Shown here piece after piece: positions 1,594 through 52,934 of a stretch of 64,000 bases of DNA. The first letter of the stretch is position 1, and each line of letters starts with the position of its first letter. The DNA lies in NCBI GenBank assembly GCA_044892505.1, contig CM097883.1, forward strand, positions 444,540,001 through 444,604,000, given 5' to 3'. Under the pieces are notes generated by a model. The model saw only the letters and a list, made by a program, of their open reading frames with translations. It did no database searches and was not told the origin of the DNA. The DNA is from Schmidtea nova (taxonomy: Eukaryota). A program made the translations under genes and the position numbers.

Positions 1594-2378
1594 GGACCAT
1601 GATTACACTGTTTATATTTATTATATCAGTAGGGAAACCTTTGATTAAGTAAAATCCCTAATTAGGATTTTTTACATAACTTTCATAAATTGTTAAAATA
1701 TTTTCATCAAGTGAGATTAAAAACACTATTAGCATTTTTAACCTCTGACGGTATAATTTTCCAATCCAGCTCTTGTAAATTCCTTGTAATCAAAACTACT
1801 GATTCAAAATCCACCATAACCAAAGCTATTTGTTACATTTTCTGCATAAATACAATTTGAATTAACGATATTTTAATTCTAATTTAACAAAAAAATGCGT
1901 TTTGTTGAAAAGTATATCTTAATTAGCTCTTTCTGGAAGGATCTTTTTAAGAAAAATAAATATTCGAAAATTTTAATTATCCGATTATATTTTATTAATT
2001 CAATGTTAACTTTGGCATGAAACACTTAAAAACAGTTTGGTACACATTTTGAACACTTCGAGTAAATTGTTTTTTGAATGATATATTTATCGTAAAAACT
2101 TTTATTCATATGCATATGCCTTCTTTTATTTTATCAATAACATATTAATGTTTGTTATCAAAAATAAAATTCTAATTAAGCTCTTTTAAAAAAGGTAATA
2201 TCGAAAAATTCCAATCCGTAGACGAATTAGAGTAAATAAAACTGAAATTTAGTCGTTCCCTTCTAAACGGATTAATAAATATTGCTGTCAACAATTTGAA
2301 ATCATATTTTGAAAATGTTTAATTAATATTAAATTTTAAAATTAAATTTTCAAAAAAATTTAATTTAAAAAAATTTTA

Positions 2379-11476: not shown

Positions 11477-13401
11477 TGTGAATGCTATATAATTTTATCA
11501 GTTTTTTTGTTATTATCTTTATTGTTGATAGTACGTATTTTGTTACCACTCTGATCATGGTGGGCGTCCGTGTGGACATCGTTTAATCTCCTATGTTTAT
11601 TATATTATAATAACAATGAAATTTAAAATAATAAAAAAATTCAAATGAAATAGAAAATAAATCAATCCAAAAAATTGATTAAAAAAATAACGAAGGATAA
11701 ATTAAAAAATTAGAAAAAAACCTAAAACAATACTATTGCCCAAATTAAACATTGTAAATGCTCAACCGGCCTAAGCCAAACACAAGAAATCAAAACCAAA
11801 ACTTTCACAACAATAAAAACAAAGAAACTGGAAATAGACAAAAATTCTGGAAACCAGAAATCAGACTAGCAAATCAAGAATTTTGTTACTTCCTTAACAA
11901 ATTTGGAGAAAAGGCATTCAAATGCACAAAATCATGCAGATATAACGAAAAAAACTCAGAAAATTGAAAAGTTTGCCATTAGTTGCTCCTACATTTGACG
12001 AAACAAATACAAAAAACTGGAAACATTGCCAGTAGTCGCACACACATTTGGTGACAAAAATAATGCATTTATGGTGCAATCAAACGACACAGAATTTCTA
12101 ATTGACACTGGTTCTGTGATCTCCTTATTACCCCATTACCTGCACAAAAACTCAAAAAACGCAGAAAAACATTTAACCGCAGCCTATGGCACAAACATAA
12201 AAACATTTGGTGAACACACCCTAACTTTAACATTTAACTCAAAGAAATACAGCTGGACATTCTTAATCTCTGATGTTCAACAAGCAATAATAGGAGCTGA
12301 CTTCCTAGCACACTACAACCTCACAGTAGACTGCCGAAATAAAACACTAACCGAAAACACAAGTACAAACAAAGAAACCGTCAAAACCAAGGCGACAACC
12401 AATTGAAAAATAGACATTGGTGTAATCCAAATGGGTCCAACAAACAACAAATCAAAACAAAACCTGAATCATGGCCCAGAAATAAACACACTATTGGAGA
12501 AAGCCGACAACCTTATCGCACCAGTAACTTTCGACGAGAAAGCAAACATAAAAAACAACGAAGAAATAAACAAACAAATAACAACTAAAAACAGTGAGAA
12601 TATCGAAAACAAATTAAAAGGAATACTAAAAATGAGACTAAACTCAGAGAAGGATGGCAAGATAATACTAACAACTGATTACCTACTAATAAAGAAGCCT
12701 TGCACAAAAGGTTCCGAAGACAAATACGAAGGCCCATTCAAATTACTTGAAATTACCAAAAACGTGGCCACAATAATAAAAAACAACAACAAAATAAGAA
12801 TAAATATACGTAGAACAAAACCATATCACCACAATCAACAACTTCCATACAGGCCCCAATGCAACCCTTCACACAACGAAACCCAAACAAAAAAAAGCAC
12901 ATAACATTCAACAGCAGAAACACAATAAAAGAATTTGATAAAAACGCGATAATCACCCCATACAAAAAGCTATACAGCCAATGCCTCAAACAACACAACA
13001 CTACATAGCAGGCAAACATATGATCGTTGTATATTTTTATATTTTTGTCGAGAGTTGTCAAACAAAATACAGAAAACATACGACACAACATAGAACACAA
13101 ATCTAAATATGTACAGAACACGTTATTTTGTAAATAGTGTAACCTCCGGTTTTAAAGGGGGAAGTTATGTGAATGTGTATAATTTTATCAGTTTTTTTTG
13201 TTATTATCTTTATTGTTGATAGTACGTATTTTGTTACCGCTCTGATCATGGTGGGCGTCCGTGTGGACATCGTTTAATCCCCCTATGTTTATTATATTAT
13301 AATAACAATGAAATTTAAAATAATAAAAAAATTCAAATGAAATAGAAAATAAATCAATCTAAAAAATTGATTAAAAAAATAACGAAGGATAAATTAAAAA
13401 A
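11477..13401 (+). mobile_element. Internally deleted Ty3/Gypsy LTR retrotransposon (~1.9 kb, non-autonomous)
   Basis: ~233-bp direct repeats at 11477-11709 and 13168-13401 starting TGTGAATG; PPT AAAGGGGGAAG at 13154-13164; interior keeps the gag Zn knuckle (CYFLNKFGEKAFKCTKSC), protease (FLIDTGS...IIGADFL) and integrase tail (YEGPF...INIRRTKPY) but no RT, RNase H or integrase core. Confidence 0.88.
11758..12406 (+). pseudogene. Gypsy gag C-terminus plus aspartic protease remnant
   Basis: ORFs 11758-11967 and 12026-12406; DTGS active-site motif. Confidence 0.85.
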
Positions 13402-15151
13402 ACATAACTAAGAAATAAGGAATTGATTTTAAATATTCAAGCAATTTTGTTACCGAAAAAAACACCGAAAGAATCCAGTTAAAAAATACTGAGATAATCT
13501 CTAAATGGAATTTATTGAGAAAAAATTCAAAGTTGATGCCAAAAGACAATTGAATGGAAAATATGAAGAATTATTTATGACTATGTATCCACTGTGAGTA
13601 TTTGTTATTTTTATTCGTTTAATAAATACAAGTTGTAATTATAAATATTGTTTTGGTTTTATTATAATTTTTTACTAATTTGTCGTAATAAACACACACA
13701 AGCACACACGCATACACCCCAATTACATAACACGCACCCCAGCTGTCCCAAGACAGCATTTTCTACCGGTGACTCGGCTGGGTTCAACAAATTTCTTAAC
13801 ATCAAATATTAACACATCCATTACAATTCTATTTATAATACAAACCTCCAGAGCCATTTACAATAGTTATTACGCTTAGAAAAAGAATAAGGGACTTAGA
13901 TATCGATTTTAATTATTTACAGGATTTGACATTTCTCTCATTAAGATCCCCAACAAACCCAATACACATCATAGACGCAAAAAAATCTCAGGAGCCCCAT
14001 AACGAACCATTCGTCTATGTTCGAAACCTATTAAAATTTTTTTCTTAATTTAAATTTGCAAGATTGATAATGGCTAAAATTCATCATATTATAAGATATA
14101 TTAACTATCGGTTGTTATCATTAAAATTCTAATAAAAAATCCTTCATAAAACTTACAGAAAAAGAAAATCAACAATAAAATTCTATTTATTTTACATAAG
14201 GTCATGAATAGGTTAAAGGGTCTATCAACAAATCGTTTATTATAATTCCAATGTATTAGGCATTGGTCGAGCGTTACTGGTTATGCAACTTCACGATGAC
14301 GAAATAAGTAACAGAAAGTTCTCCTTTTGAATAATTAATCTGAAGTGATTCGAAATAACTCCTGAGAAACTTGAACTGAAGATCCAAATAGGAAATGATT
14401 CCACGCGTAGAAAATTCATGAACAACGACACGTGATAGTTATGAGACATTTAATTTTTCACGGAGAGCTCCCAGTAGAACAATGCAGTTGATTTTAGTTA
14501 ATCTCTAAGAAATTAGATCCAACTGAACGAGAGCACGAAAAATCCGCCAGAGGATTGTCAGGAAGGGTGTTACTCGTCCTGATGATCTTTCTTAATTGAT
14601 TGGGAGGTTATTTTGTGAGGGCGACAATTTTGACAAAACTTCGAATTGCCCCTTTGATTTGTATTGTCTGGCGATTGGAAAGTCAGTTGCGATTCCATCT
14701 ACTAATTTAAAATTTAACGAAATAAAATATTCAAGTTTGAATATATTACCTAAGTGCCAATATGGAAACTGAAATTGAGAGGAGAGCCGGTTTCTGACCC
14801 TATAGAGAGCTCCATTTTAAAATTACACAAATTATTAAATTAGATTTGGAGAAATCAATTACATAATATCAACAACCAATCAGGTTGAATTTTAATTATA
14901 AATGAATAAAGACGAAAAAGAATCACAAATATATATATATATGTATGTGTGTATATATAAATGTATACATAAGTGTGTACATAATACTATATAGTAGTCA
15001 AAAAATTTTTTAAAAAATATTTTATTGGTTAAGGGGGGTTCAGAAAATAATTTTTAATAGAACTTTTAGCTGCTGAAACAAGATAGAATAAGGCTATAAC
15101 ATAGTAAAACATTTTATTATTATTCAAATGTAATTGTCGATTGATTGTGTC

Positions 15152-15319
15152 TTCTTTTAAATGATTGAGTGATTATTTCTTCCTTTAGATATTGAGTGTT
15201 TATTTCTTCTTTTAGATGATTGAGTGTTTATTTCTTCTTTTAGATGATTGAGTGTTTATTTCTTCTTTTAGATGATTGAGTGTTATTTCTTCTTTTAGAT
15301 GATTGAGTGTTTATTTCTT
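15152..15319. repeat. 28-bp tandem repeat (TCTTTTAGATGATTGAGTGTTTATTTCT), about 6 units
   Basis: Seen directly. Confidence 0.9.
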
Positions 15320-16204
15320 GCTTGCTTTATTTTTGAATTCAGCTAAATGGAATATTTTTGGCGATTTAAACAATTTTGTTTTTTATAAATAAATCAATAT
15401 TTGATTTTAATATATAAATATAAAGATATAATATTTAATTAAATTACTGTAAATAAAAATATTGTACTTATATATAAATAACGGAGGCACTACAGAACTC
15501 AAAATTTTAAAAACATAAATAGCTTTTGAATGGATAGATGAAAGATCCAAAACATTAAATCTTGTTTAAATTTGCTACATTGTAACCGTTGCCATTGTCA
15601 AGGCCTCGGTGATAATTTAAAATTTTTAACGTTAAATTTATGGCAAAATCTAAATATAAGTTATAAAGCGAAATAGACAATAGGGTGAAGATACAAATAA
15701 AGCTTACTTAATTTTTTTTAATATTAAAAACATAACAAGTTGGAAAAATTACGAAAATAATAGTCATTTAGATAAAAAACGACGATCAAATATACCCGAG
15801 TACATGCGATCTTTAAAGGAACATTTGGACCCGAATTGAATAGTGATGATATGTTTAGGTATGAATTTGTAAACGTAATAAATAAAGGACGATGTTTTGT
15901 ATTTTGATATAATTTAACGTATATTAATTGAATATAATATTTAAATTTTAAACTTTATAGATTCGACGGTACCCTCGAATTTTAGACGAACAACATCGAA
16001 AGATGAAAAAACCAACCCCTTAACATTTTCCGGAAATGTTTGAACTGATATTATTTTGTTCATGGCTTGTATATGTGTTTTTGGGCATAATTTTGGAATG
16101 ATGCTTTAAACTGTCTATATTTTATTATTTACAATGATTAATTGGGACAAATTAATAAATTTTTATTGATGTAATTTATTTTATTTTGCTGATTTAAAAG
16201 GAAT

Positions 16205-16320
16205 ATCCGTAGATACATCATTGAGTAAGGGACAAAATAGGCATTAGACCTTCTATCGGTAGCCCTTGAACCCCGGAGACGTTCGGTCAATCATAATTTC
16301 GAATTCTTCGACTCTCATGA
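16205..16320 (+). repeat. Diverged dispersed repeat, inverted relative to ~41640-41760
   Basis: Shared GGACAAAA...CATTA.ACCTTCT.TCG...GCCCTTGAAC...GAGAC.TT.GGTCAAT.ATA.TTTCGA blocks. Confidence 0.55.
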
Positions 16321-16809
16321 TTGCAAATATCCACCAATTTGTTGCATTACCAGTTACATTGTGACGGGCAACAAGATGGTTAAACTAATGTTTTATGTGT
16401 TGAGTTGTTGATGTGAGCCATAACAGCGATCAACAACCCACCAAAATCTTTTCAACATTGGTTTACTTAAACTATATACCAATTGATCAGATTACCATTT
16501 TTGTGTATCTTTCTTTGAATTATTTACCCTTTGAAATTTTGTTTACCCAAGCAAACCCATCGGGATCTATTGGGTTTGTCCAAATCTTTTTCAATTGATT
16601 TTTGGTTAATTTTTCATTCTTTCTGGGGAAAATTTCCTTTATTGTAACAACAAGATGTTAATATATTTAAATCTAAATTATGTTTATCGGGTTTTGAATT
16701 TTTAGCTCCCATTTATGAATTTAACGATGAAATTGCACTTATAGCTGATAATACTATTGAAATTAATGTACATAGAAATCACAATTTGATTTATAAATGA
16801 TCTTTCGCA

Positions 16810-17130
16810 TAATATTGTGATTTTTAGTGTTGACTAGTGATAAACGAGATCTTTTGTCTTTTTGTAGTACTTATTTTATGGCTTCACTAATATTAACATT
16901 GCCACGGATTACATTGACAATAACTTTAAGCAAATCATCAATAAAAAATGGAGCAAAAGCCTGAAAAATCATCATACGTTTATTAATTGGAGCCTTTATC
17001 AAGGTTTTAAAATATTACTTTTATGTTACTATTTTTACAGCATTTCTTTTTAACATTATTCACTAATGAACAAGTTTTCATCAGACTACCCAGTCGCCAA
17101 CCAAAACCAAAGTCCGCCAACGGCAAACCG
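16810..17130 (-). pseudogene. Possible Ser/Thr kinase relic
   Basis: LADFGFG...LMKTC followed downstream by APFFIDDLLKVIVNVIRG..ISEAIK*VLQKDKRSRLSL..H, resembling DFG/activation segment and C-lobe; no HRD or APE motif seen. Confidence 0.3.
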
Positions 17131-17385
17131 CGCGGCAATTCATCGGTACAGATCCGAGTGAATGAACAACAAAACCAATTGTGACTACTTAATTTCACAA
17201 TCATATAACTTTAATTTATTTATAAAAATTGTTTTTTGCAATTCATTCTATCCATTTATCGTTCTAAATATTAGTTTTTATTTTTTAAATATTAATTATT
17301 AAATTTTGAATTGTGACTAATAATTTTTTTTTTCTATTTTTTCTCACGTTTACACAAATTTATTTTCTGATTCCACCAGCCCAAC

Positions 17386-17565
17386 AGTTGCAAAGAAACA
17401 ATTTACATCAACAACAGAATAACTCGTTTCCATTAGGCGTTTTAATCAATCGAATACAAGGATCAAGAACACCGGTTCATTAATATAATTATTCAGGGTT
17501 ATAAAGTAGTTGCAAAAGATGTTATAACTCCAATTTGGAGAATTGACAGTGTGCGATTTGCATAA
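17386..17565 (+). pseudogene. Decayed paralogue of the palindrome ORF-B C-terminus
   Basis: SCKETIYINNRITRFH*AF*SIEYKDQEHRFINIIIQGYKVVAKDVITPIWRIDSVRFA* aligns without gaps to ORF-B (38513-38929); 3' flank also homologous to ~17625. Confidence 0.9.
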
Positions 17566-17974
17566 ATGTTTTTTAATAAATTTTATTACTATCAATTTTA
17601 GTTTTTTCTTGTTCAAATTTTTAATATAGTGTCGATTTATAGACCAGTGTTAATTTTAAATNNNNNNNNNNNNNNNNNNNNNNNNNNNNNNNNNNNNNNN
17701 NNNNNNNNNNNNNNNNNNNNNNNNNNNNNNNNNNNNNNNNNNNNNNNNNNNNNNNNNNNNNNNNNNNNNNNNNNNNNNNNNNNNNNNNNNNNNNNNNNNN
17801 NNNNNNNNNNNNNNNNNNNNNNNNNNNNNNNNNNNNNNNNNNNNNNNNNNNNNNNNNNNCTTACCTTTACATTGTCTTTGTTAATATTGCAGCTTAATGC
17901 TGACTTAGAAAAAATTTTCAAGTTTTTTATATTTTACCTGCTAATTTTTGACATAAAAAAATTTGAAAACTTTA

Positions 17975-18325
17975 TCTGACCTACTTAATTTATCATCATC
18001 ATGACCTGAAATAGACCTACTTAATTCTGACAGATAAAATTTCGAAACTAACTTTTACCTACTTAATTTGACCTTAAATTCACCTTTAAAATATTTGACC
18101 TACTTAATTTGTCCTCATCGTGATCTGAAATTGATATATTTTTAATCTTAAAGTGTCCTTAAGCGACATTTTGCCCTTAAAGTGTCCTTAAAGTGTCATT
18201 AAAGTGTCCTTAAAGTGTCATTAAAGTGTCCTTAAAGTGTCATTAAAGTGTCCTTAAAGTGTCATTAAAGTGTCCTTAAAGTGTCATTAAAGTGTCCTTA
18301 AAGTGTCATTAAAGTGTCCTTAAGC
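17975..18325. repeat. Two adjacent tandem arrays: degenerate GACCTACTTAATTT units, then alternating 11-mers AAAGTGTCCTT/AAAGTGTCATT (18148-18325)
   Basis: Seen directly. Confidence 0.9.
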
Positions 18326-18804
18326 GAAAATTTTGATCTTAAGATGTACTTAAATTGACCTACATAAAAAAATTTTCTAAGGACTCTTGACCTATATCTT
18401 ATGGGCTCACATCCTACTACTGTGGTAAATATTATTTCATGTATATTATGCGTTAATTTGGATGATTTTAAGATTTATTTTAGTGAAAACACACTTGTTT
18501 AGTAATTTTATGATGATATTATTCAAACTACGGTCTGTTTATTTGCGTACAAGTTAGCTAAATATTATTTCTCAGAGGAAATTAATTCGGATTATATGCA
18601 TAACTAATTACCAAAACACATAAATTGTGATATAACCTGCAGTTGTATAACCTGAAGTTGTATGACATGCATCTGTATTGCAATATCTTTATTGTCCATG
18701 CGTGTAAGTTGCAATTAAGTTGCAATACTTGTCCAATCAAATTACAATACACGAGTAATACACATATATATCTTGGATAAATTTTTATAAATACTTGAAA
18801 ATTT

Positions 18805-19287
18805 ATGATTATTAATAAAATGAAACAAGAAATATTTATAATAAATTTGATTGATGGTCTGTTATCTAAAGAAAAAGATAATGAAATCATATCAAGTCTA
18901 CAAATCCTGGTATCCGATGCCGAGGAAATATATAATTCCAAGCCCATCGACTTTTCGTGGATTTTGAATCAAAAATCAACTACAGCAAGAAACATGAATT
19001 TATAAGCGTGTATTATTCGTTATTTGTGTCTGAAATGAAGTGGTCACATGTCATTATGGCTTTCATGTATATAAAACAAATAAGGGATAATTCGAGTTCA
19101 AATTATGAAAATTATTTTCAATGGTCAGCACAGGTCGTTTGTTTTTTATTTAATTTTATTATTAATATTATTTTAGATTATCAAAAGTGAAATATACCCT
19201 TGGGTTCAATAAAACAGGAAATGGAAAAAACTAATAGGATTGGCTGAAAATAGTAGGATTATTAGGAATTTATTAGGATTTATTAGG
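18805..19287 (+). pseudogene. Bcl-2-family protein pseudogene (frameshift, nonsense codon, 43-nt intron, 3' end abutting a Gypsy fragment)
   Basis: BH3-like LQILVSDAEEIY; BH1-like FISVYYSLFVSEMKWSHVIMAFMY (same spacing as [24 protein letters not shown]); after splicing the GT..AG intron 19134-19176, BH2-like WSAQIIKSEIYPWVQ*NRKWKKLI (cf. Bcl-xL [24 protein letters not shown]); frameshift near 18955. Confidence 0.75.
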
Positions 19288-22200
19288 AAAACCCAAACGT
19301 TAACCGTTACCAAAATAACCATAACAACCCCATAGAGCAAAATCCAAATTTTAACCGATACAATAACCCAAACAACAACTATGTACAAAATGGAAATTGG
19401 TGTTACTTTCACAATAGATTTGGGGACAAGGCTTTCAAGAGCAACGCACCTTGTACCTTCCACAACAAAAAGCCGGAAAACAATTAAAGTCGCCAATGAC
19501 AGCAACGACATTTGGTGACTACGAAACATTCACGGTGCAAAGCAACAATTTAAATTTCCTTGTTGATTCCGGTTCAATAGTTAGTTTGTTACCAAGTTAT
19601 TCATTCCAATCCTTAAAAGAAGGAAACTACAACCTGTGCGCAGCAAATGGCAGCAACATCAAAACCTACGGCAAACAACAATTAACCATTATTATAAACA
19701 AAACAAACTACAATTGGGAATTTATCATCGCTGATGTGAAACAGGCCATTTTAGGATCCGATTTCCTAGCGAAATACAACTTGCTAGTAGACTGTCGAAA
19801 TAAAAACGTTATACAAAATACTTTCAAAACAGGAAAATACCCAATCGACAAACCTAACGACAAAAACTTTATAAAAACCTTAACAAATTGTGATATCGGA
19901 GTAATAACCACAAACACAATCAAAATACAGTCAAAAGACTTACAAACCAAAAATACAACAAAATGCGAAAAAAAACACAGGCAATGCAATACCAAAAGAA
20001 ATCAAAGACTTGCTCAAAAACTACCCTACAATCACAGACAAACTATCAATTGAAACCACAAACAAATGCATAACAGAACACGCAATCATAACAAATGGTA
20101 ACCCAGTCCACGCCAAAGTGAGGCAACTAGACAACAAAAAACTCACAATAACCAAAGAAATTTTCGACGATTTACTGGAAAACAAAATTATTCAACACTT
20201 CAATTTAAACTGGTCATCCGCACTTATGCTAAAAGAAAAAGCAAATGGCGAATGGAGAGCATGTGGAGATTAGAGAGCTTTAAACAATATCACAATACCC
20301 GACAAATACCGCATACCTATAATTAACGACGTAATCAACAGGATACATAACCCAAATTATTTCAGTAAAATCGACCTACAAAAAGCATTCAACCAAATTC
20401 CGGTGCGTGAAGAAGACATCAAAAAGACCTCGATAATAACACCGATCGGGCTATATGAATACAACCGAATGCCGTTCGGTTTGAAAAACGCAGCCGCTAC
20501 TTTCCAAATGTTCATGGACCAAATTCTGAGAAACCACAGAAATACGGTAGCGTATTTAGACGACATTTTGATTGCATCAACAAACAGAATCGAACACATA
20601 CAAGACATCAATGAAGTCTTAAAAACCCTCAACAAGCATAATCTCAAAATCAATATAAAGAAATGCGAATTCCTAAAACACCAAGTTAAATTCCTCGGGC
20701 ATATCCTTAACGAAAACGGAACAAGACCGTTAGAGGACAAAATAAAGGCAATCAAAGAATTCCTACTCCCCAAAACAACAAGAGAATTGAGACGTTTTCT
20801 AGGCATGATAAATTTTTATCACAAACATATCCCATATTGCAGCGAAATCCTTGCACCACTTAAATGAGCTAAACAAAATCAAAAGAAACATAAAAATTAA
20901 TTGGAACAAAGACCTAGAAACAGCATTTGAAAAAGTAAAAACTAAACTGTCAAATACAAGCCTATTAAACTACCCTGACCCAAACTTAACCTACATTATC
21001 AACACAGACTGTTCAGGAATAGCTATGGGAGGCACAATATACCAAGAGAAAAACAACGAAAAACAACCCATTGCATTCTTCTCAAAAAAACTCAAAGTAC
21101 ATCAAATGCGATATTCCACTCTCGACAGGGAACTACTGGCAGTACATGATACAATAAAACATTTTCAATACCTTTTAGAAGGAAAAGAGTTCAAAGTGTA
21201 CACTGACCACAAACCTCTAGTAAACGCAATCAACATGAAATTACGGTCACCAAGACAAATAAGACAATTAAATTATATTTCACAATTTAATTGCGAAATA
21301 AAATATATAACAGGAGCAGCAAACATATGCGCAGATACCCTTTCACGAATTGAAACAGAAACAAACGCGATCAGCATGATCCCAATAGTGAATCAAGAAA
21401 CAATGAGAAACAAGCAAGAAACAAGCAAGAAAGAATAATAAAAAACTTTCCAAAACTCAACTCATTAATTCTAAAAGAGTTTGATGGAATTTGGTACGAT
21501 ATTTCAAACGAAAACAACATAAGACTAATAGTACCTGATGAACACAGAATCGAACTCATCAAACAATTTCACAACATATACCACCCAGGAACAAAAGCCA
21601 CATACGAACTCATGCACACAAAAGTGGTATGGCCAAACATGAGAAAGGACATCAAAGAATTCGTCAACTCATGTATAATCTGTCAGAAAAACAAAATAAC
21701 AACAAAAATCGAATTCCAAAAAACAGAATCTTTCCAAACAATACATATAGACATAGTTGGTTCATTACCACCTAACAACAAACACAAATACCTATTGACG
21801 ATAATAGACCGAAACACCAACTGGTTTGAGGCTATCCCAATCAAAGAAATATCAGCAGCAACAATTTGCAGGAAACTAGAAATAAACTGGTTTGCGAGAT
21901 ACGGATGTCCAAAAACAACTATTAGCGACCAAGGCAGACAATTCGAATCCGATCTATTCAAAGGACTATGCACAAAATATAAAATAAAAAAAGTCCGAAC
22001 AACAGCATACAACCCACAGTCAAACGGCAAAGTAGAAAGCCTTCATGGATCCTTAAAACAAGCGATACGGACTAAAGCTAATGACAGAAACTGGATAGAA
22101 AAACTGCCAGAAATACTAATCGGGCTACGAAATAACCCATCTTCGATAAATAACAAAAGCCTTAGTCAACTAACTTTCGGACATACAACAAACCTCCCAA

Positions 22201-22520
22201 ACTTAATAAAAAATATCGAAAACACTGAAAAAACATTCGAAGTCAATGCAAAACGAAACAAAATAAATTTTCGTAAATAGAAATGACAAACAAAAACATA
22301 TCTCATGGTCGAGTCGGTATTAATAAAAAAGCCATTCACCAGCGATTTCGAAGCAAAATACGAAGGTCCCTACAAATTAATCAATCTGAACAAAAATGTG
22401 GGCACCCTACAAATAAACAACAGGGAAATCAAAATCAACATTCGCAGGTTAAAACCTTACCAATATAAAAACCAAGTAAACAAAAAACCCCAAGAGCTTC
22501 CTAAAAAAAGATTAGGTGAT
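19288..22520 (+). mobile_element. Ty3/Gypsy retrotransposon, 5'- and 3'-truncated, pol disrupted
   Basis: gag knuckle CYFHNRFGDKAFKSNAPC; protease FLVDSGS; RT (MPFGLKNAAATFQ, AYLDDILI); RNase H (INTDCSG...YSTLDRELLA...VYTDHKPL); integrase (HHPG...CIIC, HIDIVG, ISDQG, GKVESLH); YEGPY tail; order PR-RT-RH-IN; several stops and frameshifts; no LTR. Confidence 0.95.
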
Positions 22521-23148: not shown

Positions 23149-24250
23149 CTACCCGAGTCTGCTGTGAACTGATCCTTTGTTGCGATTGGTTTTCATCCGT
23201 TCAGTGCGATTCCTAAATGAGTGATGCTGAACAATCAATTGCCACAACAGCATTCAAACCTGTCAGGAATTCTATCACTATACAATCGCATGCTGGAAAT
23301 CATTTTTCTCCGTTTCCCAGATGATTTCTCGTCCTCCTCGTCGCTGTCATTGCTGCTACTTCTTTCTGACCTGGATTCATCAATTGATGAAACCGGTGAT
23401 GGTTTGCGACCGCTTTTCCTAACTGTAGATTTTTCATTGGTTACATTGTCATTATCGATCAATTCCGGTAAATCGTCATAACCAACTAATCGGGAATCAA
23501 TCTCATCTTCCTTATCCATTGTATTTCGTTTGCGTTTCAATTGTTCACGATAAGATTTCGACACAAATCCTTTCACGTTTCCATACCTAGGGTTGCCATG
23601 AGTGAGATAATATTGACTCTTTCTCTCCGATCCTTTTGTTTTTTCATCGCCTGAATAGTTTTATTAAATCACATTGTACCTATCACGAAATAACAAAAAT
23701 CTCTCAACTCGTATTAGCAATTCTCATAAACATTTTCCCAGCTGTCCCGTCCGGTAGATTTACAACTTGCCTCCAAATTCCATTGGATAAACAAAGCAAT
23801 TCCCGATTTGTTTCTTTTTCTTTCACATCGATTAATTCTTGATCTAACTCAAATTCTTCTGTGAAATTCTCAAAAACTTTAAAACAATTTGTAATTGAAT
23901 CGAAATTCAGATTACAACTGTCATCCGTAATCCATTCAATTTGAAATGGCATAAATTCTATTAGCCATTTTTCGAGGTCTTTAGATGATTTATCTTTGGT
24001 GCCCCACAAATGAATTGTGTTAATTCTCTGTTCACATGGAACGCTTTCGATGTTAGGAATTTTGAAATATTCCAATAAACTATCAGTAAAACCCTTAGTT
24101 AATGGTGAATTGATTTCACATCCACATATTTTTGACTAGTAATAAAATGTCTTATAATAATGGGCATTTAATTGAACTCACAATGCAATTACAGTGATTT
24201 AATTTATAATCAATATTATTGATTTTTGTTGAGATGACTGTTGTTTCCAT
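23149..24250 (-). CDS. NCBP3: Nuclear cap-binding protein subunit 3; exons 24250-24182, 24135-23709, 23650-23260, 23212-23149 (951 nt, 316 aa)
   Basis: IHLWGTKDKSSKDL...PFQIEWITDDSCNLNF RRM-like block; spliced MRIANTSDEKQKDRREKSQYYLTHGNPRYGNVKG matches the NCBP3 SQYY..YGNP.YG.MKG motif; C-terminal SVHSRLG*; three GT-AG introns (46, 58, 47 nt) keep the frame. Confidence 0.9.
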
Positions 24251-24950: not shown

Positions 24951-25119
24951 ATAATATTTAAAAAGGATCAAATGTGAAACAAAAAGATAATTATGATATT
25001 TAACTAATTGAAAATAAAATTTCCATAAAACTTAAATACCCTTAGAATTTTGAATATATAATTCTGTTTCGTTGATGACATGAAATCCTTATTTATCTAG
25101 AAGTAGGCAGTTATGTGGA

Positions 25120-25390
25120 GCATGAGTCATCGCAGAACAAAGGAAGTGACGTCACCCCCCCGGGGGGGTAGGAAATTTTTTATGACTCGTCGATGACGTC
25201 ATCGATGACTCATCGCGATGACTCATCGGCATGACTCATCGATGACTCATCGGCATGACTCATCGATGACTCATCGGCATGACTCATCGATGACTCATCG
25301 GCATGACTCATCGGCATGACTCATCGATGACGCCATCGATGACTCATTTCAAATTTGAATTTTATGACGTCATCGATGACTCATTTCAAA
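25120..25390. promoter_or_regulatory. Terminal array of AP-1 (TGACTCA, 13 copies) and CRE (TGACGTCA, 3 copies) motifs plus a CCCCCCCGGGGGGG palindrome; shorter mirror array at ~40335-40555
   Basis: Motifs counted by eye; regulatory function is inferred. Confidence 0.65.
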
Positions 25391-25439
25391 TTCAAATTTT
25401 GAATTTGAATTTCCAAAGGTCAAATAAGGTCAAACCTTC

Positions 25440-26010
25440 AAACAAGGGTATCATTCGAAAGGTCTTTGAGAGGTGCACACAATGGTCATACCCTCGATGG
25501 TCTATGGTGTGTCATTAACCTTCAAAGGGTCAAAAACCTTCAGATTTTTCAAACCTTGTGTGTAATACATCATTCGAAAGGTAATACCGATGTGCACACA
25601 ATGGTCATACCTTCGAAGGTGTATGGTGTGTGCTCAACCTTCAAGGGGTCAAAATCCTTCAAATATTTTTAAACATTACAAGTTATATATCAAACAAAAG
25701 GTAATTGAGATTTGAGTATGATGGTCAACCCTCGAAGGTGGGTGGTCGACCCTTGAAGGGTCCAAGACTCAAAATTTTAAAAACTATATAATATATGTAT
25801 CAAACAAAAGGTAATTGAAGGGTGCACACAATGGTCATACCCTTAAAGGGTCCAAGGTTCAAATTTTTAAAACTATATAATATGTATATCAAACAAAAGG
25901 TAATTGTGAGATGAGTGTGTGTGTTACAATTTGCCAGACGAGTGTGTGTTACAAATCCTTATTCAAACCTTATAATATACATATCATTCGAAAGGTAATT
26001 ATGGTGTGTG
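25440..26010. repeat. Subterminal degenerate ~90-120-bp repeats (about 6 units, core TCA(TTCG/AACA)AAAGGTAATT...ATGGTCATACCCT); mirror at ~39715-40285
   Basis: Seen directly. Confidence 0.8.
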
Positions 26011-26140
26011 TGTGTTATAATTTTTTCTATTTCCTACCTGAATTACAACAAAGACATTGCAATCCATGTGCAACGAAACAAAGACTAATAAAACTTGTAA
26101 TAATAATTTTTGCACACGTATCTTAGTGTTTAATAAGGAT

Positions 26141-26246
26141 CACAGTACGCATTGAACGCGCGTGGAACGCGCGTTCTTCTCCTCTTGTTGTTTAAGACAA
26201 ATAACAGTACGCATTGAACGCGCGTGGAACGCGCGTTCTTCTTCTC
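26141..26246. repeat. ~60-bp CG-rich tandem repeat (CAGTACGCATTGAACGCGCGTGGAACGCGCGTTCTTCT...) running into an N run; mirror at 39478-39585
   Basis: Two units visible in each arm before the Ns. Confidence 0.8.
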
Positions 26247-27223
26247 NNNNNNNNNNNNNNNNNNNNNNNNNNNNNNNNNNNNNNNNNNNNNNNNNNNNNN
26301 NNNNNNNNNNNNNNNNNNNNNNNNNNNNNNNNNNNNNNNNNNNNNNNNNNNNNNNNNNNNNNNNNNNNNNNNNNNNNNNNNNNNNNNNNNNNNNNNNNNN
26401 NNNNNNNNNNNNNNNNNNNNNNNNNNNNNNNNNNNNNNNNNNNNNNNNNNNNNNNNNNNNNNNNNNNNNNNNNNNNNNNNNNNNNNNNNNNNNNNNNNNN
26501 NNNNNNNNNNNNNNNNNNNNNNNNNNNNNNNNNNNNNNNNNNNNNNNNNNNNNNNNNNNNNNNNNNNNNNNNNNNNNNNNNNNNNNNNNNNNNNNNNNNN
26601 NNNNNNNNNNNNNNNNNNNNNNNNNNNNNNNNNNNNNNNNNNNNNNNNNNNNNNNNNNNNNNNNNNNNNNNNNNNNNNNNNNNNNNNNNNNNNNNNNNNN
26701 NNNNNNNNNNNNNNNNNNNNNNNNNNNNNNNNNNNNNNNNNNNNNNNNNNNNNNNNNNNNNNNNNNNNNNNNNNNNNNNNNNNNNNNNNNNNNNNNNNNN
26801 NNNNNNNNNNNNNNNNNNNNNNNNNNNNNNNNNNNNNNNNNNNNNNNNNNNNNNNNNNNNNNNNNNNNNNNNNNNNNNNNNNNNNNNNNNNNNNNNNNNN
26901 NNNNNNNNNNNNNNNNNNNNNNNNNNNNNNNNNNNNNNNNNNNNNNNNNNNNNNNNNNNNNNNNNNAGATAATTATGATAATAATAATAATANNNNNNNN
27001 NNNNNNNNNNNNNNNNNNNNNNNNNNNNNNNNNNNNNNNNNNNNNNNNNNNNNNNNNNNNNNNNNNNNNNNNNNNNNNNNNNNNNNNNNNNNNNNNNNNN
27101 NNNNNNNNNNNNNNNNNNNNNNNNNNNNNNNNNNNNNNNNNNNNNNNTATAAAAATTCAAACAATCAAAAACTAAAATTGAAATTACTAAATTTTATTGA
27201 ATATAACATTTATAAAATAACAG

Positions 27224-27640
27224 TTATGCATATCGTGCACTGTCAATTCTCCAAATTGGAGTTATAACATCTTTTGTATCGATTTTATATCCCTGAATGA
27301 TTATGGTAATAAACCAATTTTCTTGATCCTTGTATTCGATAGATTGGAAAGCATCATGGAAACGTGTTTTTCGGTTGTTGATCCATATAGTTTCCTTGCA
27401 ACTTAAATTGTTATTGATTTTAAATAAAATTTTATTTAGTGCAACAACATCTTCTTTACATAGATTTGCAGCTAAATTGTCATACAATGACTTTGTTAAT
27501 TTCACTGGATACGACAAACGAAACGGTATTTCTTGTACCAAGAAATAAATTTTGTAATCGTAATACATTTGCACTGGTTTCAATTCATTATTGATTTTTC
27601 TTTCTTCACTGATATCATAAGTTGATTTACGTGCTGGCAT
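27224..27640 (-). CDS. Palindrome ORF-B, left-arm copy (138 aa, unknown; possibly OB-fold-like)
   Basis: Intact ORF in both arms; TATAAATA ~40 nt upstream; diverged paralogue at 17386-17565 with many third-position changes. Confidence 0.75.
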   Translation of the reverse strand: MPARKSTYDISEERKINNELKPVQMYYDYKIYFLVQEIPFRLSYPVKLTKSLYDNLAANLCKEDVVALNKILFKINNNLSCKETIWINNRKTRFHDAFQSIEYKDQENWFITIIIQGYKIDTKDVITPIWRIDSARYA

Positions 27641-28226
27641 TTTTGAAATTGTGACAATCTCTACTAAATGTCTTTGTATTTATAATGATGAGTAATACCT
27701 TTGCCCAATCAAAATGATGCATTCTAACTGCACATGTTATGCATGTCTTCATACATGTCTTTGTTGCAAGCATGTCGTTGTTGCAGGTATGTCTTTGTTG
27801 CATGTCTTTGTCGTGTGTTAATTATACATGTATGTTTATTTTGTTGAAACTGGTTATATAATACATGACTTTGTTGTAATTAATTGATGCATATGCATTT
27901 ATTATTGAAATTGTCTTTATTTATAAAAATTACTATTAAACATAATTCATTTAAATAAAACTTATTTAAAACTTAATAAAAATTACTAGTAAACCTATTT
28001 CATTTCAAAAAAAAAAACTAATTAAAAATTATTTTAAAATTATTTAAAAAATTTATTTAAAAACCGAATAAATAACTCATTAACAAAATAAAAAAAAAAC
28101 TGAAACAGAAAAAACTAAAATAACAATAATAAAAGATTTATTAAATAATAAAATGTGAATACATAAAATGTGTCTACATAAAAAGAAAATACACAAATAA
28201 ATAAAAACATATAACATTTATAATGT

Positions 28227-28919
28227 TTATTCTGCAATCTCTATATTTGAAAGCTTGCGATGGCATTGATCGCAATCAGGCAATTGAGGCGATTCAATAC
28301 ATTTGTTTTCGTCGGATTGATCCATAGCAGTCCAACAACCAAAAGATAATTGTAATTCTGGCAATTCATCTAAATGATCAGGTGAATTATCGCAATCATG
28401 CGATTTATCGCAATCATGCGATTTATCGCAATCATGCGATTTATCGCAATCATGCGATTTATCGCAATCTGGCGATTTTTCATCATCCGACGCTTCGGGT
28501 GTTGAATTTGGCCATTGCTTTGGAATCTCGTCCTCCTCGTCAATTTTTTCCAATTTCTTGGAATTCATTTCAAATTGATGGAGGGCGTTTCGTAACATCC
28601 AGACCCGATACTTCTGTATACGGTCCATACAATGGCCGCATTGGTATGCGCACAAGATGTGCTCCGCCATATATGGCATTTCACTGTCCCGATTAGCCAG
28701 ATGATCCAGTAAGACCTGATGAATATCGATCCCAGTCAGGCATTGAATTTTGTAGGGAAAGAGCTCCGGTGCTGCATAGGTCAGCTTCGGCATCAGCATC
28801 GGATAGATTTCCTCAAGTTTACCGTAAAGTACGGAAATTAATTTCTCTAAAATGAAAAAATTATAAAAATGAAAAAATAGTAAACTTTAAAATTTACCAT
28901 ATTTCATTATCTCGGGCAT
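28227..28919 (-). CDS. Palindrome ORF-A, left-arm copy (exons 28919-28898 and 28846-28227; 213 aa; Cys/His clusters, acidic region, CDKSHD x4)
   Basis: 51-nt GT-AG intron joins MPEIMKY in frame to EKLISVLYGKLEEIYPMLMPK...; upstream TATA and two CCAAT boxes; GC-rich relative to flanks. Confidence 0.78.
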
Positions 28920-29299
28920 TTTGTGATTGTGAATATAAATGATAGCAAAATGTTAATTGTATATATACGATAGAAACACAAGACATGTACAAAATATTAC
29001 ACACTGAACCAATCAGATTCGAGTATGCATAACATGTATTTATTATCGAAATATACATTGGACCAATCAGAATAGTGCATTAATATTGCAGATTTATTGC
29101 AATCATGAGTCACATGTTATTATAAAATCAACAAAGGCTTTATCTTCGATAATTTATTTTATATCGATAATAATATTATCAACTATATTTAAATAATCCC
29201 TAGTTTTTAAACCTAATACAACTACTTTACCACTTGCAAATATACTAACTCACATGTGGTTATATTTTATATATCTCAAAGCTGGAAATATTTTCAGGT

Positions 29300-31970
29300 T
29301 CGTAAACACACTATTAATTTAGACTAATAATGTGAATATCATCACACTGAGCAGGTAAATACATGACAAATTATCATACTATACAGATCCTTACACAAAT
29401 TATTTTTATACTAGAGTACAAATATATCAAAAATATATGAAATATATATATACATGAAATATCAGAACAAAGTATCTTTAAATACATCAAATATTATTAT
29501 ACTATTATGCAAACTACATACAAAATGTCATACTATAGTTTAATAACATAGAAAATCATTAAAAATACACACAAAATATCAAAAATACATATAAATTCAT
29601 CACATACACATATAAAATAACATTACATATATGAAATATTATTACACAAAAGGTTATCACATGAAAGAAATATCTACGTACTATTGAGAATCATACACAC
29701 AAAATATATAGAAATTCATCATACACACACATGAAATATTACTACACAAAAGATTATCACATGCACAAAATATTATCATACTATAATGCAAAATACACAC
29801 AAAATATCATTACATGAAATATTATCACAAAGTAACGTTATATACATGAAATATCATCCGATACATGAAATTTCATCACAAAAAATCATCATACACACAA
29901 ATTATATACAAAGTTTATCATAAATACTAGAAATACAGACAATAATAATCATAAAAAGAAATATTATCACACTAGTGGAAATATATACACAAAAGCTTAT
30001 CAGATGTACGAAATATTATTATTGTACCATAATGCAAAATACAAATAAAATGTCAAAATTAAAAGCATATACACAAAGTATTATCACATTATAGTGTAAA
30101 AACATTAGAAATACATACAAAATATATGAAGTGTCATCACAAAATATCCAAGATTCACAAAGAAAATATTAAAAATACAAACAAAAGATTATCATATTAT
30201 TGTTTGATAACATAAAAATACATAGAAAATCATCAAAATACGTACAAGTATCATTACATAGATAAACTATAATTATCACATACATGAAATATCTTCATAG
30301 AAAATATCAAAAGTACATAGAAATAAATCCTATACACAAAGGATATCATTACACATGTGAAATATCTTTACATACATAAAATGTCATCATGCTTTAATGC
30401 AAATACGGACAAGAAATATCTTCATGTTATAATGCAAATACACATAATATTAAAAGTTATATCATATACACACACAAAGGGTATCATACACATGAAAAGT
30501 TGTCATGTTATAGTCAGTCAAATGAATGAAATATTATCATACTAGTGTAAAATACATACATAATTTCAAAGAATGCATCATACAAAGGATATCATCACAA
30601 TATATCATCATACTATAGTGCAATTACATAGATAATCATCAAAAAGATACAAAAATTAATCAAATTCACAACAATAATCATTAAAGAAATATCTACATAC
30701 ACAAAGAAAATCATATACACATACTTAGAAAATCATCATGTACAAAATATCAAAAGTTCATTACACATACAAAATATAATCACATATATCATAAATCTAT
30801 AATGTAACAGTAATAAATGTTCAAGTAATGAGCTTTTGCACATGAAAACCATCACAAAAGATGTTATGCTTCTAGGGTTCTGATAGCAATGTTCTGTTCG
30901 CAATGTTCTGCTACTGTATAAAATTAATGAAAATTATATGAATGAAAATAAATCTTTCAAACATTACAGTAAATTCTACTTTAAAATGAGATCGAATGCA
31001 TGAAATGTCATCATACTATAGCGAAAATACATGAAAATATTCACAAAGTGACATTAGATACATCAAATATTATCTTACTAGTTTGATAACATTGAGAAAG
31101 AAAATATATAGAAATCATCAAAAATATACACACAAAATATTAAAAATAAGTCATATGAAATGTCATCACAAAATACATAGATATTCATGACACACGTACA
31201 AAATATCAAAAATACAAACATACACAAAATATTATCACATTATAGTGCAAAAATATTAGAAATACATACAAAATATGAAATATATATGAAATGTCATCAC
31301 AAAGTATCATTAAATACATAATATATCATCATGAAATATCATTACATACATGAAATATCATCCTTCTATAGTGCAATTACAAGAATATACCCACACAATA
31401 TCAAACATATATTGAAATTCATCAAAATACATAGAAATTCATCAAACAAGAAATATTCACATAATAATTGTCATTAAAAGTGTATCAGTAAATGTAATAT
31501 GCTTTCACAATTTGTCTGTTACATTGATCGAAGCTCATATGATTAAGCTAATGATTGTTATTTTAGTATATGTGTGAATAATAAACTTTTGCACATAAAA
31601 ACCATCACAAAAGATGTTCTGTTACTAAAGGTTCTGCTAGCAATGGTCTGTTAGCAATGTTCTGCTACTGAATAAAATTGATGAAAATATAACAATAATG
31701 AATTATGAGTGAAAATAAATCTTTCAAACATTACAGTAGGTTCTACTTTAAAGTGAGAAAAACCAATAGATATTTTAAAAGCAATGTAGAAAATATTAAT
31801 GGGTGAGAATATTAGAACAATTAATGTTGAATGAAGTTGAATTGTAACAGTAATAATTAAATAAATGTTCGAGTAATAAGCTTTTGCAGATAAAAACCAT
31901 CACAAAAGATGTTCTGCTACTAGTGTTCTGTTAGCAAGGTTCTGCTACTAGGGTTCTGATAGAAACGTTC
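29300..31970. repeat. ~2.6-kb A/C-rich degenerate low-complexity tract with three copies of a longer subrepeat (~30830, ~31585, ~31875); mirror at ~34220-36890
   Basis: Recurrent AAATATCATCA/CATGAAAT/ATACACA(C)AAAA words; TTTTGCA.AT.AAAACCATCACAAAAGATGTT occurs three times. Confidence 0.75.
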
Positions 31971-32068
31971 GACTACTTATCATATTTCAAGTCTGAATTG
32001 TTGATATAAATCACTGTGACGCATGTTTGAAACACTTGTACTGTCATGTTATGCATGTGTCATGCACT

Positions 32069-32190
32069 TGTATTGCAACTTGATTGCATTTGTATTGCAA
32101 CTTGATTGCATTTGTATTGCAACTTGATTGCATTTGTATTGCAACTTGATTGCATTTGTATTGCAACTTGATTGCATTTGTATTGCAACT
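32069..32190. repeat. 22-bp tandem repeat TGTATTGCAACTTGATTGCATT x5.5; mirror at 33998-34119
   Basis: Seen directly; lies ~500 bp upstream of the inner core promoter. Confidence 0.9.
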
Positions 32191-33135
32191 TAATTACACT
32201 TGTATTTCTTGTGTCATTCACTTGTGATATTCAAGAACATGTATATTTTCTTTCATTTTCCTTAAATATTAATCATTTTTACATAATTTAATTATTTTCA
32301 GAGTAAATTTAATACAAAATAGTAAAGATATTGACAATTCCTGTATTTATTAAGCAATGATTTTGGATACTTTGTGATGATACAAAATGGTTGTAAAATG
32401 ATAAAACATTATTTCCTCCGTAGAAGTGTATAAAACTATAAATTGATTCAAGGAAATATTCAATGGATTTGTCTAATAAGTTAAAAAAGTTGTATTTTAA
32501 TCAAACTGTACATATTGAATCATAGTTTTAAGAGTCAATTTCTTGCAAAAACAAAGCGGATTTTCAAAATTCATGTTATAGTTCTAAATCAAACTTTAAA
32601 ATTTAAAATACCACAACGTAAAATATTTTTAAAGTACCACAACGTAATAAAAGTTGGTATATATCTATTAGAATTTTATAAGTAATTCATTTGAGATAAT
32701 AAATATATTACGTTAGTGGATAATGCCAGATGTTTAAAAAACTCCAACATTAGAAAAAGTATCAAGCAAGTTAACCTTATTCCAAAAAAAAAAAAAAAAA
32801 AAAAAAATATTTATATACATGATAAGGTTTTTCTCTTCAAACTTTTGAATATTTTATAATTTCTTGGAAGATCAAAAAAAAAAAAAAAAATAAAATAAAA
32901 TAAAATATGGTCTGAAATAATATATGAATTAACTCTATTATTTCGTCTCTTCATATTTTTAAATAGCCACAATATTATATATTCTCAATAGCTTTACTAT
33001 AAATAATTTATTTATAAATATTCAAAACGTTTTCCCGTTATTTACTTAATTTTTATTATTCAATAATTACTACAATAATAATAAAAAATTAAATCGGATG
33101 ATAAAAGTCAAAAACTCTTAAAATAATTTATTTCA

Positions 33136-33489
33136 TTAAAATTCTTTAGCTTCTCGCATTTGATTCATCAATTGTTCATTTTCAATTTTCAATTTTAGTA
33201 TTTCTAAATTCTTTCTGCGAAGCTTCAGTATCATTCTTTCCTTTGATTCCCGGTAGAGATTGATCATTTTCTCTAGTTCCTCCATTCGACTCTTAATGTG
33301 AACCTTTGAACCATTGACCTTTGGAATTTCATGACTTTTTCCTAATAAATGTAATAATAATAATAATAAATTTAGAAAAATAAGTATAATTTTACTTGAA
33401 CTTTTAGAACTTTCAGGTAGCGAACTTCCATGTACCGAGATTGATTCATTCTCTGCGTTATTATTATTGCTAGTTTGTTGAGTGTTCAT
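33136..33489 (-). CDS. Palindrome ORF-C (central, single copy); probable 54-nt intron 33395-33342 gives a 99-aa protein with a basic coiled-coil C-terminus
   Basis: ATG 6 nt from the inner end of the right arm; the apparent hydrophobic stretch is an AT-rich GT...TTAG segment; heptad-like RMEELEKMINLYRESKERMILKLRRKNLEILKLKIENEQLMNQM. Confidence 0.7.
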   Translation of the reverse strand: MNTQQTSNNNNAENESISVHGSSLPESSKSSSKIILIFLNLLLLLLHLLGKSHEIPKVNGSKVHIKSRMEELEKMINLYRESKERMILKLRRKNLEILKLKIENEQLMNQMREAKEF

Positions 33490-36400
33490 TGTTTAAAATG
33501 AATTTCTTATAAAATTCTAATAGATATATACCAACTTTTATTACGTTGTGGTACTTTAAAAATATTTTACGTTGTGGTATTTTAAATTTTAAAGTTTGAT
33601 TTAGAACTATAACATGAATTTTGAAAATCCGCTTTGTTTTTGCAAGAAATTGACTCTAAAAACTATGATTCAATATGTACAGTTTGATTAAAATACAACT
33701 TTTTTAACTTATTAGACAAATCCATTGAATATTTCCTTGAATCAATTTATAGTTTTATACACTTCTACGGAGGAAATAATGTTTTATCATTTTACAACCA
33801 TTTTGTATCATCACAAAGTATCCAAAATCATTGCTTAATAAATACAGGAATTGTCAATATCTTTACTATTTTGTATTAAATTTACTCTGAAAATAATTAA
33901 ATTATGTAAAAATGATTAATATTTAAGGAAAATGAAAGAAAATATACATGTTCTTGAATATCACAAGTGAATGACACAAGAAATACAAGTGTAATTAAGT
34001 TGCAATACAAATGCAATCAAGTTGCAATACAAATGCAATCAAGTTGCAATACAAATGCAATCAAGTTGCAATACAAATGCAATCAAGTTGCAATACAAAT
34101 GCAATCAAGTTGCAATACAAGTGCATGACACATGCATAACATGACAGTACAAGTGTTTCAAACATGCGTCACAGTGATTTATATCAACAATTCAGACTTG
34201 AAATATGATAAGTAGTCGAACGTTTCTATCAGAACCCTAGTAGCAGAACCTTGCTAACAGAACACTAGTAGCAGAACATCTTTTGTGATGGTTTTTATCT
34301 GCAAAAGCTTATTACTCGAACATTTATTTAATTATTACTGTTACAATTCAACTTCATTCAACATTAATTGTTCTAATATTCTCACCCATTAATATTTTCT
34401 ACATTGCTTTTAAAATATCTATTGGTTTTTCTCACTTTAAAGTAGAACCTACTGTAATGTTTGAAAGATTTATTTTCACTCATAATTCATTATTGTTATA
34501 TTTTCATCAATTTTATTCAGTAGCAGAACATTGCTAACAGACCATTGCTAGCAGAACCTTTAGTAACAGAACATCTTTTGTGATGGTTTTTATGTGCAAA
34601 AGTTTATTATTCACACATATACTAAAATAACAATCATTAGCTTAATCATATGAGCTTCGATCAATGTAACAGACAAATTGTGAAAGCATATTACATTTAC
34701 TGATACACTTTTAATGACAATTATTATGTGAATATTTCTTGTTTGATGAATTTCTATGTATTTTGATGAATTTCAATATATGTTTGATATTGTGTGGGTA
34801 TATTCTTGTAATTGCACTATAGAAGGATGATATTTCATGTATGTAATGATATTTCATGATGATATATTATGTATTTAATGATACTTTGTGATGACATTTC
34901 ATATATATTTCATATTTTGTATGTATTTCTAATATTTTTGCACTATAATGTGATAATATTTTGTGTATGTTTGTATTTTTGATATTTTGTACGTGTGTCA
35001 TGAATATCTATGTATTTTGTGATGACATTTCATATGACTTATTTTTAATATTTTGTGTGTATATTTTTGATGATTTCTATATATTTTCTTTCTCAATGTT
35101 ATAAAACTAGTAAGATAATATTTGATGTATCTAATGTCACTTTGTGAATATTTTCATGTATTTTCGCTATAGTATGATGACATTTCATGCATTCGATCTC
35201 ATTTTAAAGTAGAATTTACTGTAATGTTTGAAAGATTTATTTTCATTCATATAATTTTCATTAATTTTATACAGTAGCAGAACATTGCGAACAGAACATT
35301 GCTATCAGAACCCTAGAAGCATAACATCTTTTGTGATGGTTTTCATGTGCAAAAGCTCATTACTTGAACATTTATTACTGTTACATTATAGATTTATGAT
35401 ATATGTGATTATATTTTGTATGTGTAATGAACTTTTGATATTTTGTACATGATGATTTTCTAAGTATGTGTATATGATTTTCTTTGTGTATGTAGATATT
35501 TCTTTAATGATTATTGTTGTGAATTTGATTAATTTTTGTATCTTTTTGATGATTATCTATGTAATTGCACTATAGTATGATGATATATTGTGATGATATC
35601 CTTTGTATGATGCATTCTTTGAAATTATGTATGTATTTTACACTAGTATGATAATATTTCATTCATTTGACTGACTATAACATGACAACTTTTCATGTGT
35701 ATGATACCCTTTGTGTGTGTATATGATATAACTTTTAATATTATGTGTATTTGCATTATAACATGAAGATATTTCTTGTCCGTATTTGCATTAAAGCATG
35801 ATGACATTTTATGTATGTAAAGATATTTCACATGTGTAATGATATCCTTTGTGTATAGGATTTATTTCTATGTACTTTTGATATTTTCTATGAAGATATT
35901 TCATGTATGTGATAATTATAGTTTATCTATGTAATGATACTTGTACGTATTTTGATGATTTTCTATGTATTTTTATGTTATCAAACAATAATATGATAAT
36001 CTTTTGTTTGTATTTTTAATATTTTCTTTGTGAATCTTGGATATTTTGTGATGACACTTCATATATTTTGTATGTATTTCTAATGTTTTTACACTATAAT
36101 GTGATAATACTTTATGTATATGCTTTTAATTTTGACATTTTATTTGTATTTTGCATTATGGTACAATAATAATATTTCGTACATCTGATAAGCTTTTGTG
36201 TATATATTTCCACTAGTGTGATAATATTTCTTTTTATGATTATTATTGTCTGTATTTCTAGTATTTATGATAAACTTTGTATATAATTTGTGTGTATGAT
36301 GATTTTTTGTGATGAAATTTCATGTATCGGATGATATTTCATGTATATAACGTTACTTTGTGATAATATTTCATGTAATGATATTTTGTGTGTATTTTGC

Positions 36401-39184: not shown

Positions 39185-39263
<79 letters not shown>

Positions 39264-49015: not shown

Positions 49016-49073
49016 TATTATTATTATTATTATTATCATAATTATCTTTTTTCACCTTTGATCTTTTTTTATT

Positions 49074-52928: not shown

Positions 52929-52934
52929 AGTCAC

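Follow-up and report, generated by a model that had tools for sequence, protein, structure and literature searches.

By its sequence, the segment at positions 18805–19287 of the 64,000-nt stretch of Schmidtea nova DNA that we analyzed (the window) is a Bcl-2 homologue, now a broken pseudogene. Our preferred reading, to which we give a probability of roughly 0.62, is that it derives from a small two-exon Bcl-2-family gene, one of a multicopy family that Maverick/Polinton-type elements spread through the genome of this animal. The surrounding sequence is AT-rich, animal-type DNA in which Gypsy, mariner, and other repeats crowd the window.

The gene is on the plus strand and begins with an ATG at 18805. 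Exon 1 (18805–19133) carries N-terminal and BH3-like helices in one frame and the BH1 region in another; the first frame stops at 19003–19005, the BH1-bearing frame is open from 18975, and the frameshift between them lies near 18960–19000. A predicted GT-AG intron of 43 nt (19134–19176) follows, about 14 codons before the BH2 tryptophan. Exon 2 (19177–19287) holds BH2, with a TAA at 19210–19212 where Bcl-xL has the E of WIQENGGW, and a hydrophobic, tail-like stretch in another frame that includes a short tandem duplication and a stop. The mean hydropathy of this stretch is 0.94, compared with 1.04 for the tail of the intact relative P0005 described below, and a second frameshift is probable after BH2 and before the membrane-anchor-like tail. 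A first-pass annotation of this DNA had reported the TAA correctly and had counted one frameshift; that frameshift is confirmed, but the probable second one had been missed. The window copy is dead and makes no protein.

The 43-nt intron proposed in that annotation was recovered as the best of 17 GT-AG pairs when aligned to P0005 (score 160). The runner-up uses a donor 3 nt later, at 19137, which would give a 40-nt intron, and scored 155. A joint at 19134–19176 was not seen among the 15 of 311 joints listed, which come from contigs only, in the four runs of one study described below. We found no GT after the BH2 tryptophan codon in the window copy, so it has no intron at the BH2 GGW tryptophan. 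Pro-survival genes have a conserved intron at that position according to the available text of PMC8998228; the window intron lies about 14 codons earlier.

Homology to Bcl-2 was established through an intact relative. Used alone, none of the four window pieces matched Bcl-2 in Pfam, and the 53-aa middle piece had no match among PDB sequences or in the ESM Atlas. This piece (18975–19133) found two matches in a full HMMER search against 1.84 billion proteins, one of which was P0005 (E 2.3e-4). The top match of the search, P0004, is a tandem-repeat leafhopper protein aligned in five weak stretches, and it was dropped. P0005 is an intact 166-aa protein that matches the Pfam Bcl-2 family (PF00452) at E 1.3e-11, with 45.3 bits against a cut-off of 31.4. 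The suggested Pfam check failed on the pieces directly and succeeded on the intact relative. Against PDB sequences, P0005 matches Bcl-xL structures at E 1e-8, and the best 60 of 117 matches are all Bcl-xL or Bcl-2. It falls among Bcl-2 clusters in the ESM Atlas (0.95) and has one close relative, P0006 (76%). Both are JGI entries known only as proteins from short contigs, of 927 and 1405 nt.

Joined with an X at each break, the window pieces are collinear with P0005, with 42 of 113 residues identical and a score of 178; the maximum among shuffles was 73, and 0 of 2000 shuffles reached 178. The order and spacing of the BH3-, BH1-, and BH2-like segments are kept, as the first-pass annotation had claimed, in an alignment to P0005 residues 11–128 with two short gaps. 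The middle piece had been the query that found P0005, so independent evidence comes from exon 2 and from the gain in score on removal of the intron. Exon 2 alone scores 44 against P0005, with a shuffle maximum of 41 (0/2000), and the joined pieces score 178 when spliced and 150 with the intron kept. The first piece, which covers the BH3 region, is not significant alone, as its score was reached by 111 of 2000 shuffles. Scores against P0005 and P0006 were 178 and 182, compared with 70 and 67 against two canonical Bcl-2 proteins. Together, the Pfam match of P0005 and the significant alignment of the pieces uphold the proposed membership of the Bcl-2 family. Like the window copy, P0005 and P0006 have “KWS” in BH1 and a hydrophobic C-terminal tail, and they are collinear with it at 37% identity over 113–120 residues; unlike it, they are intact, and their sequences have diverged too far for one element to have given rise to all of them as copies.

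The fold model of P0005 has eight helices and low confidence (pLDDT 47). The PDB structures listed as matches to this model all belong to the Bcl-2 family, with none at E 0.001. A fold search in BFVD likewise gave 0 of 434 at E 0.001; its list includes a lancelet adintovirus Bcl2 entry, a match that is not significant. A search of viral and metagenome contigs with P0005 produced one locus each (L001 and L002), which are distant canonical Bcl-2 genes with no bearing on the element and were set aside. L002 is an intact, unrelated Bcl-2-family ORF (170–730) in a short metagenome contig, with a second ORF directly after it. An alignment of P0005 and P0006 used as a query of contigs gave no matches.

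In BH1, the window copy reads KWSH, P0005 reads KWSQ, and P0006 reads KWSR, so the glycine of NWGR is absent in all three. Since the intact relatives also lack it, loss of this glycine is a family trait and not a product of decay. The arginine of NWGR is also gone in the window copy and P0005. In the available text of PMC8998228, changes of this kind in BH1 reportedly alter the BH3-binding groove or leave it non-functional. The BH3-BH1-BH2-tail order is otherwise the same as in pro-survival Bcl-xL and Bcl-2 (PMC8998228), and P0005 retains WIQENGGW in BH2. Of the anti-apoptotic cargo role suggested in the first-pass annotation, what stands is the likeness to Bcl-xL; the BH1 glycine is missing from the window copy and both intact relatives. 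We infer an anti-apoptotic role for the family from this sequence likeness, and it is a putative one.

Copies of the gene were sought in contigs from four runs of one study (X1–X4), which contain 34–42% of the words of 17860–19290. One contig is identical to 18488–18685; therefore, the source organism of the runs is the same or a very close one. Contigs were aligned to 15000–19600, with 32 of about 38,000 pieces listed, and the summed depth is not a copy number. At position 19056, a letter other than that of the window is found in 74, 30, 47, and 51 contigs of runs X1–X4, respectively. The listed pieces of 220–325 nt over the Bcl-2-like gene each have 26–46 differences. These contigs represent dozens of copies at 10–20% divergence (four runs, one study), and the Bcl-2-like gene family is multicopy and old. 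The window copy differs at several places from nearly all other copies.

The link to Maverick/Polinton-type elements starts from a 15.5-kb palindromic element at 25102–40574. Its junctions read TCTAGA|AGTAGG ... CCTACT|TCTAGA, giving AGT...ACT inverted ends and a 6-bp target duplication on both sides. Both the AGT...ACT ends and the 6-bp duplication are characteristic of Mavericks and occur in the vertebrate ones described by Barreat and Katzourakis 2021 (PMC8097293, available text), although the vertebrate ends are (AGT)2 or (AG)3 and the palindrome has AGTAGG. Over 4291 nt, the two inner arms have 13 differences. On the plus strand, the element encodes ORF-B (38513–38929; 138 aa), which belongs to no known family, with 0 matches in Pfam and further protein searches and an unusable fold model (pLDDT 35). 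Comparison with Bcl-2 proteins found no Bcl-2 match in the readable sequence of the palindrome. The element is young, and its outer arms carry unequal N-runs. Its unpaired center of 781 nt contains a broken reading frame at 33136–33492 on the minus strand. A mirror-image ORF, at 37302–37925 (+) and 28227–28886 (−), has CXXC-like motifs and a weak zinc-ribbon hint in Pfam (E 0.2); an 18-nt repeat within it has three units in one arm and five in the other.

A paralogue of the 3′ half of ORF-B lies upstream of the Bcl-2-like gene on the same strand (17386–17608). It is 83.5% identical to 38750–38973 (E 1e-62) and has two internal stops. From its stop to the Bcl-2-like ATG is 1,240 nt, matching the 1.2 kb given in the first-pass annotation. 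On the minus strand at 16444–16612 is a relic with one frameshift and one stop, which in a six-frame reading looked like the N-terminal domain of a Maverick integrase. We collected 120 rve integrases, many with a chromodomain, and built a profile from the 16 that have the N-terminal domain; these were picked with a pattern that follows background knowledge of the domain, and the position of the break (X) was set by eye. On this profile, the relic scores 25.8 bits. In comparison, 48,340 other two-frame joins in the window reached at most 11.4 bits and 1,994 scored shuffles at most 10.8. It is also the best single-frame match to integrases in the window, but a weak one (iE 0.029). The catalytic core is absent from the relic and was not found in the decayed region by tblastn with the 120 integrases. 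The chromodomain layout is described for adintovirus integrases in the available part of PMC11071296. Three pattern scans of viral contigs gave one usable core integrase (L034) and none with the N-terminal domain.

The integrase relic is 0.8 kb from the ORF-B paralogue and at most 2.2 kb from the Bcl-2-like gene. Its proximity to the paralogue ties the family of ORF-B to a Polinton integrase. Divergent from the relic is a broken reading frame on the plus strand (16690–17010) with no Pfam family of note, and a run X2 contig from another copy covers 16562–17004, bridging the two. This frame had been considered as a second Bcl-2 relic and was rejected, as there is no Bcl-2 match there. The relic is cut by a very-high-depth repeat (16227–16422) with a 73% inverted match to 41628–41732, in which a few residues may resemble Penelope-type reverse transcriptase. 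A left element end at 16403–16424 was dropped, since those bases are part of this separate repeat. The integrase relic beside the ORF-B paralogue and the multicopy state support the earlier description of the locus as a decayed relative of the palindromic element, but in the decayed region (16444–19287) we found no terminus pair, no target duplication, and no partner of the palindrome’s terminal 1.1 kb.

A run of 198 N (17662–17859) separates the ORF-B paralogue from the Bcl-2-like gene, and it is followed by dispersed and tandem repeats (17860–18421), including an 11/22-nt array at 18175–18323, that end in CCTACTACT at 18413–18421. This is a candidate right-hand Maverick end, and (ACT)2 is a described right end in the available text of PMC8097293. 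The integrase/ORF-B element could accordingly stop there, leaving the Bcl-2-like gene in a different, non-Polinton multicopy repeat that the element merely adjoins or had inserted into, in a transposon graveyard. Placement after a repeat array fits such an end, ORF-B points toward it as in the palindrome, and one X1 contig aligns only from 18425 onward; the N-run and the absence of any bridge from ORF-B to the Bcl-2-like gene among the 32 contig pieces listed are consistent with it. However, no inverted partner or target duplication of 18413–18421 was found within the window, it resembles the palindrome’s end no more than expected by chance (rank 60 of 457, z 1.2), and the window contains 11 instances of ACTACT. 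A repeat motif shared with the palindrome also lies on the Bcl-2 side of the boundary. This is a cluster of TGCAAY-type short repeats (18631–18767, plus strand) that is related to the palindrome’s inner repeat and is possibly promoter DNA; three such motifs also precede each of the palindrome’s two larger ORFs. It includes the 16-mer at 18713–18728 that the first-pass annotation had noticed, which does recur at 33993 and, inverted, at 32180. The 16-mer is weak alone, since two unrelated 16-mers with at least four G/C are also common to the palindrome, but it is embedded in a match to the palindrome of 42–56 nt at 79–83% (E 1e-5 to 1e-6). Furthermore, the repeat cluster has six TGCAAY motifs in 205 nt, and of 923 overlapping bins examined outside the palindrome, no other is like it. 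We regard an element ending at 18413–18421 as rather unlikely, and a link of the Bcl-2-like gene to a Polinton-type element as likely. The earlier placement of the gene within one element with ORF-B is putative: the N-run, the candidate end, and the lack of a Bcl-2 match in the readable palindrome weigh against it, as do the intronless genes of intact vertebrate Mavericks (PMC8097293). The six frames of 14400–19300, read with X, matched none of the Pfam families for PolB, ATPase, protease, or capsid in an insensitive scan that missed the Bcl-2 piece too, and Rfam had no matches in 15000–19400.

Two further explanations place the gene outside Polintons. It could be a decayed paralogue from an expanded host Bcl-2 family that came to lie beside Polinton debris by chance, as might be suggested by its intron, by P0005 and P0006 being known only from short contigs, and by a host-like gene 4 kb away. 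That gene, on the minus strand at 23238–24135 between the Gypsy fragment and the palindrome, has an NCBP3 domain (Pfam E 2.3e-9). Dozens of copies at 10–20% divergence are easier to reconcile with a mobile family, host pro-survival genes keep their conserved intron at the BH2 GGW (PMC8998228) and the window gene has its intron elsewhere, and the upstream motif is common to the palindrome; a host origin is accordingly improbable. The remaining explanation, in which the gene and the Gypsy sequence after it both belong to a giant Gypsy retroelement of the Burro kind, has a precedent in planarian Burro elements, which carry BCL2-like motifs (PMC6431247, available text), and the Gypsy fragment is on the same strand and in direct contact. 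However, Burro BCL2 is a domain of the gag-pol polyprotein (PMC6431247), whereas the window gene starts with an ATG of its own and is interrupted by an intron. A retroelement would lose such an intron. As the first-pass annotation stated, Gypsy sequence starts at 19288, where homology of 94% to 52729–52936 begins and the Bcl-2-like gene is cut off. The element (19288–22520, plus strand) is 5′-truncated and frameshifted, with Pfam matches to PR, RT, RNase H, and IN. Its break corresponds to codon 227 of a gag-like ORF (52050–52928) in a fuller copy at 52050–55630, and upstream of the break point the fuller copy has ordinary gag and no Bcl-2. Because the Gypsy piece starts mid-gag and the fuller copy has no Bcl-2 upstream, the junction at 19288 comes from truncation and is no fusion of the Burro type. 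The junction largely refutes this explanation, which we consider very improbable.

Under our preferred reading, in which Maverick/Polinton-type elements spread the family, the Bcl-2-like gene would be an accessory gene, carried either by the ORF-B/integrase element or by a nested relative. We would expect intact members to be tail-anchored helical-bundle proteins of ~160 aa, like P0005, located on mitochondria, where they may keep the host cell from Bax/Bak-type death for as long as the element is replicating or integrating. Viral Bcl-2 proteins delay host-cell death, according to the available text of PMC11209288. With Ser in place of the NWGR Gly in BH1, ligand choice would probably differ from that of Bcl-xL. 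An element that is nuclear and chromosome-resident could afford a spliced gene. We also entertain, as a speculative and rather doubtful extension, that a nuclear Maverick/Polinton lineage, including giant palindromic non-autonomous forms, amplified a spliced Bcl-2 gene with the Gly-to-Ser BH1 to a very high copy number in this animal; the intron would have been gained at its new position after capture, and live copies would jointly set the host’s death threshold, perhaps in cells that the element needs to survive in, such as stem or germ cells.

That Bcl2 and IAP genes occur in adintoviruses and Polintons is already published (Starrett et al. 2021, PMC8502044), which limits the surprise of Bcl-2 cargo here; the maps in the available part of the supplement label Bcl2 three times. 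In that system as in ours, an animal genome has a Bcl-2 homologue associated with an element of the Maverick integrase type. The window gene differs in being a pseudogene with a predicted intron and candidate cargo, in a fragment in which PolB and capsid were not found. Neither a flatworm nor a close sequence relative is among the Bcl2 supplement matches in the available part of PMC8502044. Intact vertebrate Mavericks have intronless genes and eight core ORFs, unlike the window gene with its predicted intron, but they resemble the case here in that most loci are degraded fossils and accessory regions flank the core (PMC8097293, available text). Planarian Burro giant LTR retrotransposons (PMC6431247) are similar in being transposons with BCL2-like sequence and different in lacking a separate, intron-bearing gene, as far as the available text describes them. 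The literature searched, with most subscription journals uncovered, held no spliced Bcl-2 in an invertebrate Polinton and no palindromic Polinton with Bcl-2. Within that literature, the combination of an unusual intron position, a non-NWGR BH1, and high copy number is new. The dead copy itself does nothing and marks a multicopy family. If intact members ride Polinton-type elements, a spliced, non-NWGR Bcl-2 would join the known apoptosis-control cargo, and one could test in a concrete case whether an element that resides in the chromosome tunes the death of host cells.

Other repeats of the window include an internally deleted Gypsy-like element at 11477–13400 with two near-identical LTR-like repeats, which is kin to the Gypsy sequences at 19288 and 51500–55640. 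At 48100–49040 and 61350–62120 lie two inverted copies, ~90% alike, of a 0.8–0.9 kb element that carries terminal inverted repeats of its own and has a duplication inside. Lastly, a frameshifted mariner/Tc1 transposase (Pfam HTH_48 and Transposase_1) is on the plus strand at 2323–3576.
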